A program made the position numbers and the translations under genes. From Escherichia coli (GTDB lineage: Bacteria; Pseudomonadota; Gammaproteobacteria; Enterobacterales; Enterobacteriaceae): 64,000 nt of DNA. This document shows, piece after piece, positions 31,716 to 32,008 of this stretch. Below the pieces are notes generated by a model, which saw only the letters and a program-made list of their open reading frames with translations, searched no databases and was not told the DNA's origin. The DNA lies in the NCBI RefSeq assembly GCF_003790525.1, contig NZ_CP033635.1; one strand, given 5' to 3'. How positions within the stretch are numbered: the stretch's first letter is position 1; every line of letters starts with the position of its first letter.

Positions 31716-32008
31716 ATGCATGTCAACCACAAATCTATCATTCCCCCGATATATGTTTATTTTATGTAAAATCAATTTATGTAAAAAGTCACATCATTGT
31801 AGTTAAAAAGGTTGAGTTAGATCGCAGAAACGGGTACATATAGCCCCGCAAACGTGACCACGCCCGCAGATATTATTTAAATCAGAGCCATAGAGGCCAC
31901 GCAGGCGAGGCATCAATCTTTACGATCTGTATAAAGACGGATTGTTGATGATGTGTTAAAATTGATGTAAATAAATTGTGAATTAAAATATGCTTCCGGG
32001 GAAAATAA

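Follow-up and report, generated by a model that had tools for sequence, protein, structure and literature searches.

The bcr and yejG genes of Escherichia coli are separated by a 333-bp spacer (31676–32008), which extends from the end of bcr at 31675 to the annotated GTG start codon of yejG at 32009. All positions refer to the window, the whole 64-kb stretch of DNA that was analyzed. The first-pass annotation described a strongly AT-rich spacer of about 330 bp and a GTG start for yejG, and both descriptions hold. The GC content of the spacer is 0.37 against 0.52 for the window, which corresponds to the 2nd percentile among 333-bp windows. GTG, ATG, or TTG is found at the same aligned position as the yejG start in nearly all relatives, and the yejG of Kluyvera has an ATG start one codon downstream. 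The product of yejG is a small protein of unknown function conserved across Enterobacteriaceae, and the gene is reported to respond to oxygen, growth phase, and acid. bcr is located upstream of yejG in 78 of 80 YejG loci; the remaining two loci contain too little upstream DNA. The region upstream of yejG has no curated regulator and is unannotated in all 5425 E. coli genomes, and it is among the most constrained non-coding stretches of the 64-kb window. The features are listed in Table 1.

Table 1. Features of the bcr–yejG spacer and the flanking genes.
Feature	Position	Strand	Description
bcr CDS	30485..31675	+	ORF list and RefSeq annotation; gene 5' of yejG, same strand
bcr intrinsic terminator	31686..31714	+	stem 31690-97/31702-09, loop AAAA, then TTTGTT
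FNR-type palindrome TTGATgcatGTCAA	31713..31726		9/10 core positions; abuts the terminator T-tract
Consensus-predicted promoter TTGATG-17-TATCAT	31713..31741	+	from scan; -10 poorly conserved, 0.3 to 0.8
Ultra-conserved 94-bp block	31754..31847		upstream repeats, A-tract, P2 core promoter
Repeat copy 1 TTTATGTAAAA	31761..31771	+	-87 to -77 of P2
Repeat copy 2 TTTATGTAAAA	31776..31786	+	-72 to -62 of P2; overlaps CRP-like core
A-tract TTAAAAAGG	31803..31811	+	-45 to -37, just upstream of P2 -35; conservation at least 0.9
Distal promoter P2	31812..31840	+	-35 TTGAGT 31812-17, 17-bp spacer, -10 TACATA 31835-40
P2 transcription start	31847..31849	+	K-12 2,276,419 (U00096.2); 160 to 162 nt 5' of GTG
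Variable part of P2 leader	31850..31936	+	GC-richer; conservation 0.42, least conserved stretch
TGTnA chain of four	31943..31981	+	31943 TGTTG/TGTCA, 31954 TGTTA, 31966 TGTAA, 31977 TGTGA
Proximal promoter P1	31954..31962	+	extended -10 TGtTAAAAT, no usable -35
P1 transcription start	31967..31969	+	K-12 2,276,299 (U00096.2); 40 to 42 nt 5' of GTG
Conserved GCTTCCGGGGAAA	31993..32008	+	contains Shine-Dalgarno GGGGA 31998-32002
yejG CDS	32009..32353	+	GTG start; Pfam YejG-like PF13989, E = 5.8e-51; function unknown

An intrinsic terminator follows bcr. Its folding energy is −21.6 kcal/mol (z = −5.3), and 0 of 200 shuffles were as stable. In relatives, GC-rich stems that differ by genus are each followed by a T-run, and covariation across them shows compensatory changes in three of four stem pairs. 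The adjacent FNR-type palindrome has one mismatch to TTGAT-N4-ATCAA in the window. About 39 to 41 relatives carry the perfect sequence at the orthologous position, as the sole match in each 5.3-kb locus. At least 9 of the 10 FNR core positions are matched in about 63 of 76 aligned spacers; the arms are conserved while N4 varies. In Table S6 of Myers 2013, the K-12 site is a predicted FNR site with a PatSer score of 14.14; it lacks an FNR ChIP-seq peak and overlaps Fis enrichment. yejG is included only in Tables S2, S6, and S12 of that study and is absent from Tables S5, S8, and S10; it is missing from the tables of FNR peaks and FNR-dependent operons. A second FNR-like match at 31962–31975 was rejected, because only Superficieibacter and one related metagenome-assembled genome conserve it as an FNR site.

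Conservation was measured on an alignment of 76 spacers, the window and 75 enterobacterial orthologues. Mean column conservation is 0.90 in the 94-bp block, compared with 0.79 in the yejG CDS and 0.56 at its third codon positions; the best 94-nt window within the CDS reaches 0.84. Judging from this alignment, the block is under strong purifying selection. It is single-copy and never annotated in 5425 E. coli genomes, and the search of these genomes revealed no paralogous copy elsewhere. A dispersed repeat family (REP/BIME, CRISPR, or IS ends) is ruled out by the single location per genome. Conservation is also at least 0.8 over GCTTCCGGGGAA, the Shine-Dalgarno segment, in the aligned spacers.

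The direct repeats that the first-pass annotation placed at about 31761 and 31776 are exact 11-nt copies of TTTATGTAAAA. Of the 76 aligned spacers, 66 preserve their 15-bp period. The related block said to lie near 31950 is also present, but at 31964–31992 (GATGTAAATAAATTGTGAATTAAAATATG). The third copy of the repeat, AATTGATGTAAA (31960–31971), is on the P1 start, with the third ATGTAAA at 31965. An exact 11-nt repeat within 30 bp is seen in 0.1% of dinucleotide shuffles. ATGTAAA occurs three times in the spacer against 0.13 expected, while the whole 64 kb contains only four on the plus strand and one on the minus strand. Five positions inside the third block differ between K-12 and the window strain, so this block is variable within E. 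coli. Because copies 1 and 2 precede the P2 start, they are DNA elements, not RNA. Their base-for-base conservation indicates sequence-specific factors rather than generic AT-rich binding, and it is very likely that some sequence-specific factor acts at the yejG control region.

Two sigma70 start sites upstream of yejG were mapped by primer extension in K-12 (PMC3798280, Table 1). The promoter that had been suggested for the spacer is thus real, although its number was understated. The starts were placed by alignment with K-12, with an uncertainty of about 1 nt from the assembly offset. The primers of the same study, yejGP2 and yejGP1, anneal at 31877–31897 and 32016–32036 and fit the P2 and P1 starts, respectively. 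The P2 hexamers are correctly placed for the mapped start at 31848 ± 1, and dPeak predicted a sigma70 binding event at about 31835 (PMC3798280). The P2 −10 is weak, with 3 to 4 of 6 positions, and P2 was missed by the consensus scan for this reason. The 17-bp P2 spacer is conserved and contains GATC at 31820–31823; its spacing is kept out to Serratia and Erwinia. The A-tract TTAAAAAGG may be an UP-element-like sequence. The P1 −10 is located 6 to 7 nt 5' of the mapped start at 31968 ± 1. In most relatives it reads TGtTAATAT, and GTGTTA is invariant across 19 sequences. The proximal box ATGTAAAT(A/T)AATTGTGAAG persists even where P1 has been lost.

The consensus scan predicted TTGATG-17-TATCAT, listed as the yejG 'constitutive promoter' (Shimada 2014), and TTGATG-16-TAAAAT, and neither fits the mapped starts. 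The scan missed both real promoters and the bcr terminator, and it was therefore not relied upon. Two datasets, one from sigma32 SELEX (a peak) and one from sigma32 ChIP-chip (a candidate), point to sigma32 holoenzyme at about 31800–31816. By eye, no convincing CTTGAAA-N13-15-CCCCATnT motif was recognized near P2 on either strand. The strong conservation of the P2 17-bp spacer and the sigma32 signals fall outside the explanation proposed below. yejG is included in a MazF regulon listing with the value 35, which is probably the P1 5' end; ACA is absent at the listed position.

Hfq enrichment has been reported for an RNA that overlaps the yejG 5' UTR, in the interval '5' UTR-yejG' (Bilusic et al. 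2014, PMC4152368), and the ten sRNAs of Raghavan et al. 2011 include one that overlaps this interval (PMC4152368). A transcript thus starts inside the spacer, and the first-pass suggestion of a small untranslated RNA is correct to this extent; no mark of an independent sRNA gene (terminator, Rfam match, fold, conservation) was found. The RNA has its own promoter, P2, while neither a defined 3' end nor conserved transcribed sequence or structure was found. Compared with shuffled sequences, the P2 leader shows no excess folding stability (z = −0.08 and −1.4) and the P1 leader is unstructured (z = +1.7). RNAalifold predicted 0 pairs for the consensus structure of the P2 leader. No terminator-like site was found in 31716–32008 with a simple terminator scan, which also missed the bcr terminator, and the E. 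coli P2 leader includes no TTTT run. A permissive Rfam scan returned only two chance-level matches far below threshold and outside the transcribed leader, one to a eukaryotic lncRNA model and one to CRISPR-DR at 18 bits against the gathering score of 36.

The variable part of the P2 leader is about 55 nt shorter in the E. asburiae group, and almost none of it is left in Enterobacter sp. ENT03. In one relative, both the P2 leader and P1 are missing, while P2 itself, the proximal box, and the Shine-Dalgarno sequence are still present. In many genera other than Escherichia, the T-run GCGTTTTCT follows variable hairpins at about nucleotide 75 of the leader. This combination of hairpin and T-run, considered as the end of the E. 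coli RNA at about +75, is absent in Escherichia and thus cannot explain the E. coli RNA. The Hfq-bound '5' UTR-yejG' RNA is most plausibly the P2 leader and not the product of a separate sRNA gene.

Phosphorylated ArcA binds TGTTA-like direct repeats 11 bp apart, often two to five of them, which overlap the promoters of aerobically expressed genes. The scan used a consensus of the ArcA box, attributed to Lynch & Lin 1996, Liu & De Wulf 2004, and Park et al. 2013, instead of a curated matrix, and the best spacer matches are 12/16. Three matches of at least 12/16 are present in the spacer against 0.17 expected, and 0 of 2000 shuffles reach three. TGTTT at 31754 and repeat copy 1 constitute an 11-bp-phased TGTnA pair (12/16) at −94 to −79 of P2, and each of its two elements, TGTTT and TGTAA, is conserved in 74 of 76 sequences. 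The chain of four TGTnA elements has spacings of 11, 12, and 11 bp, covers the P1 −10, the start, and the early leader, and includes copy 3. Its 12/16 matches are at 31943 and 31966, and its individual pentamers are conserved in 48 to 70 of 76 sequences. The two best ArcA-type matches in the 64 kb are just upstream of mqo and yeiQ.

The sigma70 occupancy of yejG depends on oxygen. The sigma70 ChIP-seq signal is 1461.69 aerobically and 56.14 anaerobically, a 26-fold difference (Myers 2013, Table S2), and the yejG mRNA is 4.0-fold higher aerobically (Myers 2013, Table S12). mqo and yeiQ are also higher aerobically (Myers 2013), and yejG is mentioned in a paper on the Salmonella ArcA regulon. It is possible, short of probable, that ArcA acts at the yejG control region. 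Copies 1 and 2 are 15 bp apart and thus cannot pair as a standard ArcA pair. The CRP-dependent mglB is also higher aerobically in glucose medium, so that ArcA and CRP are not separated by the oxygen response. Against the ArcA reading, one chain spacing is 12 bp instead of 11, and the matches are moderate, 12/16 at best. A protein bound to the upstream pair, at −94 to −79 of P2, would not block RNA polymerase.

A CRP-like core, T(A/G)TGT-N6-TCACA, is located at 31778–31793, centered at −62.5 of P2 with an uncertainty of about 1 nt. TCACA is nearly invariant, and the left half is TATGT (8/10, E. coli) or TGTGT (9/10, 9 aligned spacers). The distance from GTCAC to the P2 −10 hexamer is 45 bp in 48 of the 49 spacers in which both motifs could be located. 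yejG is a genomic-SELEX target of CRP, in a listing that gives no site position, and is induced when growth on glucose ends. An action of CRP at the yejG control region can be proposed tentatively. The left half-site TATGT is weak, and an 8/10 core match is common by chance.

The sequence was also compared by eye with the consensus sequences of other factors. The CpxR motif GTAAA-N5-GTAAA was rejected, the spacing here being N10, and none of TyrR, PhoP, IHF, Fis, ArgR, LexA, PurR, GalR, EvgA, and the GadE box fits both the sequence and the conservation. A Cra ChIP-exo site and a predicted GalR operator are inside the yejG CDS (32087–32102), outside the spacer.

The spacer is probably a compound transcriptional control region of yejG with two sigma70 promoters. 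In the mechanism proposed, with presumed binding factors, the bcr terminator would be followed by about 300 bp carrying P2 (start near 31848) and P1 (start near 31968). The TGTAA core of the repeats would belong to 11-bp-phased TGTnA sets resembling the targets of phosphorylated ArcA, with one pair upstream of P2 and a chain of four over P1 from −25 to +14. Both P1 and P2 would be shut off without oxygen. Copy 2 would serve as the weak half of the CRP-like site at −62.5 of P2, allowing class I activation as glucose runs out. Fis and H-NS would occupy the AT-rich DNA and, in K-12, mask the adjacent FNR-type palindrome. Transcripts from P2 would carry the poorly conserved 160-nt leader, which is probably the reported Hfq-associated RNA.

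Nucleoid proteins, which the first-pass annotation also proposed, have genome-scale support on the spacer: an aerobic H-NS ChIP-chip peak covers 2276252–2277051 of U00096.2, about 31217–32016 of the window (Myers 2013, Table S3), and Fis ChIP-seq enrichment overlaps the spacer (Myers 2013), although H-NS was not flagged there by Shimada 2014. It is rather unlikely that the repeats are mainly a platform for H-NS or Fis on curved A-tract DNA, giving growth-phase control with no dedicated regulator. This would suit the H-NS peak, the Fis enrichment over the FNR-type site, the GC content of 0.37, the A-tracts at 31768–31771, 31783–31787, and 31805–31809, and the lower yejG expression in a ydgT mutant. 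However, 94 bp are conserved base for base, including non-A/T positions and exact spacing, beyond what degenerate sites need; H-NS is unflagged in one study, and yejG is well expressed aerobically despite the aerobic H-NS peak. The 94-bp block may instead be the operator array of a regulator other than ArcA, CRP, and Fis, which reads ATGTAAA at a fixed 15-bp phase with copy 3 on the P1 start. Together with the 'silent' palindrome, possibly read by a YeiL-type protein, this would make yejG a core target of an uncharacterised Enterobacteriaceae circuit; in a weaker variant, the Escherichia-specific P2 leader would be a young Hfq-dependent regulatory RNA grown from a variable 5' UTR. This proposal is considered unlikely.

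An independent Hfq-binding sRNA, transcribed from P2 and ending before yejG, could act in trans or as a cis-leader, with the conserved block as its promoter. The overlap of the Raghavan et al. 2011 sRNA with the Hfq-enriched interval, the P2 start 160 nt 5' of yejG, and the T-run in many non-Escherichia genera are in its favor, while the E. coli spacer has no terminator-like site and its leader no TTTT run. The Rfam matches off the leader, the fold at the level of shuffled sequences with no consensus structure, the leader conservation of 0.42, and its deletion in some Enterobacter genomes render such a gene quite unlikely. Control of yejG by FNR, or by a CRP/FNR-family candidate such as YeiL, through TTGAT-N4-ATCAA appears improbable. 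The conservation of the palindrome across genera argues for its use under some condition; its core is matched with N4 free to vary, the PatSer score of the K-12 site falls inside the bound-site range, and sigma70 occupancy is lost anaerobically. However, K-12 shows no FNR peak at the site and yejG is outside the FNR-dependent operons, the palindrome is centered at the non-standard positions of −128.5 of P2 and −248.5 of P1, the E. coli copy has a mismatch, and the match at 31962–31975 is unconserved. The gene for YeiL, the putative reader, is 22 kb away. A chance origin of the repeats in AT-rich sequence is extremely improbable, and so is a tiny peptide encoded by them, from ATG 31753 with 17 codons or as ATG-TAA start-stop units. 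Every motif copy includes ATGTAA, and an ATG or TTG at 31753 opens the 17-codon frame, but chance is excluded by the repeat statistics and the cross-genus conservation. The three codon positions of this frame are conserved at 0.91, 0.90, and 0.89, and this equality means that there is no coding signature; the frame has no Shine-Dalgarno sequence, and transcription from P2 begins only after copies 1 and 2. The reading as a mini-ORF or start-stop ATGTAA unit was rejected for the missing codon-position signature.

The reading as a control region with two sigma70 promoters makes the spacer an ordinary bacterial promoter region, partly documented and little studied, and its anatomy leaves current concepts unchanged. 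The terminator, the silent FNR-type site, the repeats, the two promoters, the dispensable leader, and the proximal box are concrete targets for mutagenesis, which could tell when and why yejG is made. The palindrome provides a test case for the function of masked 'silent' high-scoring factor sites.

Like E. coli multi-promoter sigma70 regions with tandem P1/P2 and global regulators, the yejG region has two primer-extension starts, 120 nt apart. It shares with them condition-dependent sigma70 occupancy, an A-tract upstream of a −35, and conserved candidate factor sites upstream of one start and over the other. It differs in that conservation in the 94-bp upstream block exceeds that of the CDS under its control, the promoter spacer is conserved too, and the regulators are candidates. 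As in class I CRP promoters, with a site near −61.5, the CRP-like core is at −62.5 (or −61.5 within mapping error), its distance to the −10 is fixed across genera, and yejG was recovered in CRP SELEX, while the left half-site in E. coli is weak and the SELEX resolution does not place the candidate site. The region resembles ArcA-P operators in its 11-bp-phased TGTnA elements, with three 12/16 matches and a four-element chain on the P1 −10 and start, and in the anaerobic loss of sigma70 with no FNR dependence; the same scan finds the mqo upstream region. It differs from them in the moderate matches, the one 12-bp spacing, and the exact copies 15 bp apart, and its sites are putative. Compared with 5' UTR-derived Hfq-associated RNAs, the yejG 5' UTR RNA was likewise reported as a novel sRNA and Hfq-enriched, while it has no terminator, conserved sequence or structure, or Rfam family, and its leader is dispensable in some relatives. 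The yejG palindrome itself is listed among the 'silent' FNR sites masked by nucleoid proteins (Myers 2013), and the analysis here adds that dozens of enterobacterial species conserve it at an unchanged position, often as the perfect consensus.

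Two sigma70 binding events upstream of yejG were resolved by dPeak, and primer extension with aerobic RNA gave starts at 2,276,299 for the proximal promoter (P1) and 2,276,419 for the distal promoter (P2) in U00096.2 coordinates (Chung et al. 2013, PMC3798280). The primers of that study are the reverse complements of window positions 32016-36 and 31877-97. By the K-12/window alignment, the P1 start corresponds to 31968 ± 1, 40-42 nt before the GTG, and the P2 start to 31848 ± 1, 160-162 nt before the GTG. The 1-nt uncertainty is due to the assembly offset from U00096.2 to U00096.3, which we take to be +1978. 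Both P1 and P2 are recognizable as sigma70 promoters, and the promoter proposed for this spacer in the first-pass annotation is a pair with primer-extension starts. The 17-bp spacer of P2 is strictly conserved, with a GATC (Dam site) in its middle (31820-31823) that nearly all relatives retain as TAGATCGCAG or TAGATCACAG. A sigma32 peak from RpoH genomic SELEX and a candidate from an independent sigma32 ChIP-chip dataset both map to about 31800-31816, the P2 -35/A-tract region; no recognizable sigma32 promoter was found at P2 on either strand.

Features of the bcr-yejG spacer and ArcA-box-like matches elsewhere in the window (window positions)
Feature	Position	Strand	Remark
bcr	30485-31675	+	RefSeq annotation
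bcr terminator	about 31686-31714		structure-only conservation
FNR-type palindrome	31713-26		directly adjoins the bcr terminator T-run
Conserved block	31754-31847		90% column conservation; ends at P2 start
Direct repeat copies 1 and 2, TTTATGTAAAA	31761-71 and 31776-86		exact matches
P2, TTGAGT-17-TACATA	31812-40		correctly placed for mapped start
P2 leader	31850-31936		42% conserved, lowest of all segments
Proximal segment	31937-32008		73% conserved
P1 extended -10, TGtTAAAAT	31954-62		correctly placed for mapped start
Repeat copy 3, AATTGATGTAAA	31960-71		within the related block
yejG start codon GTG	32009		GGGGA upstream at 31998
yejG	32009-32353	+	RefSeq annotation
ArcA-box-like match, mqo upstream	5340-5369	+	best in window, 14/16 with adjacent 12/16
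ArcA-box-like match TGTTAATTAATCGTTA, yeiQ upstream	44018-44033	-	second 14/16

A 501-nt query around the spacer was matched at 95% identity or more in 5425 of 5426 complete E. coli genomes, with 100% identity in strain SMS-3-5. No annotated feature is present in the 333-bp spacer of SMS-3-5 or K-12, nor is one recorded beneath the conserved core among the records listed for the 5425 genomes that matched; yejF is annotated in RefSeq on the opposite strand, convergent. K-12 and the window strain show six differences in the entire spacer, five of them, including a 1-bp indel, clustered at 31972-31990 between the P1 start and the Shine-Dalgarno sequence; at 31990, the window strain has ATG and K-12 has GTG. 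The AT-rich composition (37% GC against 52% for the window; 2nd percentile among same-size windows), the direct repeats, the related block and the GTG start described earlier are all present, the block starting at 31964 rather than near 31950. An exact 11-nt repeat within 30 bp is seen in 0.1% of dinucleotide shuffles, and the spacer has three copies of ATGTAAA where 0.13 would be expected, with only five occurrences on both strands of the 64 kb. The repeats are not due to chance.

A YejG scan with one genome per species revealed 80 loci; bcr lies upstream of yejG in 78 of them, with a spacer of 310-345 bp in most. When the spacers of 75 relatives were aligned with that of the window (76 sequences), they split sharply into differently conserved segments. 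The bcr terminator is an intrinsic terminator whose GC-rich stem differs by genus (three of four pairs changed on both sides), each followed by a T-run; the E. coli hairpin has a folding z of -5.3. The conserved block is better conserved than the yejG coding sequence (79%; 56% at third codon positions), in which the best 94-nt window reaches at most 84%. Within it lie the two exact repeats, an A-tract, the hexamers of P2 and the promoter spacer with GATC, and the conservation of this promoter spacer is unusual. In the Enterobacter asburiae group (loci L066 and L068-L070), a deletion shortens the P2 leader by about 55 nt. The 220-bp spacer of Enterobacter sp. ENT03 (locus L032) has lost the entire P2 leader and the P1 -10, keeping P2, the box ATGTAAATTAATTGTGAAG and the Shine-Dalgarno sequence, with the P2 core promoter fused to the proximal box. 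The proximal segment includes the P1 extended -10, TTGTGAAG, GCTTCCGGGGAAA and, at the start site, motif copy 3. Where P1 is lost, the proximal box ATGTAAAT(A/T)AATTGTGAAG is kept; it may serve as an operator or as an element of the mRNA.

Repeat copies 1 and 2 are upstream of the distal start, and they therefore act as DNA. It is very probable that the repeats are read by some sequence-specific factor. Their common core is TGTAA, and all copies but one have a TGTnA partner 11 or 12 bp off. Upstream of P2, TGTTT at 31754 is paired with TGTAA at 31765, while a chain of four elements (TGTTG 31943, TGTTA 31954, TGTAA 31966 and TGTGA 31977) covers P1 from -25 to +14; the 31943 element is TGTCA in most species. 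The TGTnA pentamers are retained in 48 to 74 of the 76 sequences, and the exact copies 1 and 2 are in a 15-bp phase. Sites for phosphorylated ArcA (ArcA-P) consist of direct repeats similar to TGTTA and spaced by 11 bp, often with several in series, and the phased elements of the spacer resemble this architecture. Scanning with the 16-mer TGTTAATTAAATGTTA, an ArcA-box consensus to which the matches are moderate, gave three matches of at least 12/16 in the spacer against 0.17 expected, and none of 2000 shuffles reached three. The top two matches in the whole window (14/16) are upstream of mqo (61-90 nt before the start at 5430, the 14/16 match itself at 61-76 nt) and yeiQ (17-32 nt upstream of the start at 44001). 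The mqo gene is repressed by ArcA, and for yeiQ we know of no curated ArcA link. The aerobic/anaerobic mRNA ratios of mqo (6.85), yeiQ (2.77), yejG (4.0) and the mqo neighbour yojI (5.0) all indicate higher aerobic levels, the direction being inferred from acnB, lpdA and nuo (>1) and nap and ccm (<1) (Myers et al. 2013, Table S12, PMC3688515). The sigma70 signal at yejG changes in the same direction, 1461.69 aerobically vs. 56.14 anaerobically (PMC3688515 supplements). If ArcA-P bound across P1 and ahead of P2, this near-complete anaerobic loss of sigma70 occupancy without FNR dependence would be accounted for; ArcA is put forward as a tentative candidate reader of these elements.

Copy 2 doubles as the weak half-site in a CRP-like core, T(A/G)TGT-N6-TCACA (31778-93), centred at -62.5 of P2, or -61.5 within mapping error. 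Its TCACA half and the 45-bp distance to the -10 are almost invariant. The core fits the listing of yejG among CRP genomic-SELEX targets (Shimada et al. 2011) and the rise of yejG in O157 as growth on glucose ends. CRP, judged from a moderate match to its consensus, is likewise a tentative candidate, slightly less favoured than ArcA. The yejG gene has also been singled out as specifically acid-induced.

The core of the FNR-type palindrome is matched at 9/10 or more positions in about 63 of the 76 aligned spacers, and about 39 to 41 relatives have a perfect TTGAT-N4-ATCAA at the same position, the sole match per 5.3-kb locus. Its arms are invariant and the N4 at the centre varies freely, the hallmark of a site bound by a protein dimer, so the published "silent", Fis-masked K-12 site is under selection. 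At this predicted site, TTGACATGCATCAA (2276541), ChIP-seq gave no peak for FNR, Fis ChIP-seq enrichment overlaps it, and yejG is absent from the tables of FNR peaks and FNR-dependent operons (Myers et al. 2013, PMC3688515). As a functional FNR site in K-12, it matches in sequence but not in occupancy or regulation. An aerobic H-NS ChIP-chip peak at 2276252-2277051 (PMC3688515) corresponds to about 31217-32016, and together with the Fis enrichment gives genome-scale support to the nucleoid-protein occupancy suggested at first. In the loci L045, L053 (Superficieibacter) and L058 (Enterobacteriaceae bacterium UBA5654), the P1-proximal copy, which lies 33-48 nt upstream of yejG, forms a perfect FNR core (TTGATGTGAATCAA); L045 has no upstream palindrome, as if the FNR site had shifted position.

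The first-pass annotation also raised a small untranslated RNA. According to Bilusic et al. 2014, an Hfq-enriched interval, "5' UTR-yejG", overlaps one of ten sRNAs newly described by Raghavan, Groisman and Ochman (2011), and a transcript does start within the spacer. Matches to Rfam were all far under threshold, and no terminator-like site for such an RNA was found in the spacer. The P2 leader has no excess folding stability over shuffled sequence (z = -0.08 for 183 nt, -1.4 for 120 nt), RNAalifold found no consensus pair among 19 diverse sequences, and natural deletions remove this leader. In line with an open translation-initiation region, the P1 leader has less structure than random sequence (z = +1.7). 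Nothing was found to mark the transcribed part as an sRNA gene or a riboswitch: a promoter and Hfq association are present, but a terminator, conservation and structure are all missing. The best reading of the reported RNA is therefore the P2 leader or an Hfq-bound fragment of it, not the product of an independent gene, although a lineage-specific function of the leader RNA is conceivable. Many other genera have a GCGTTTTCT run about 75 nt into the P2 leader behind variable hairpins, absent in Escherichia, which could be a weak attenuator.

The P2 leaders of other genera, such as those of L014/L017 (Citrobacter), L043 (Klebsiella) and L072 (Enterobacter), share a recurrent motif (A/G)TGTAAGCGTTTTCT about 65-80 nt past the P2 start, behind genus-specific hairpins. 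Some Citrobacter carry it as a nearly perfect LacI-family-type palindrome, TGTAAACGTTTACC, while the Escherichia version, ATCAATCTTTAC, is degenerate; the motif could be an operator or a weak attenuator. Inside yejG, GTTGAACCGATTCCGC at 32087-32102 (codons 27-32) is the reverse complement of a predicted GalR operator (Qian et al. 2016), and an intragenic Cra ChIP-exo site was reported in yejG (Kim et al. 2018). These reports place a LacI-family-type operator within the coding sequence, not the spacer.

Most of these pieces were already known, scattered across published supplements; what is new is the comparison across relatives and the interpretation of the repeats as TGTnA elements in phase. 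A terminator, upstream sites for factors, two sigma70 promoters in tandem, a leader and a Shine-Dalgarno sequence make up the spacer, which resembles the multi-input promoter regions of enterobacteria and works like a standard one.
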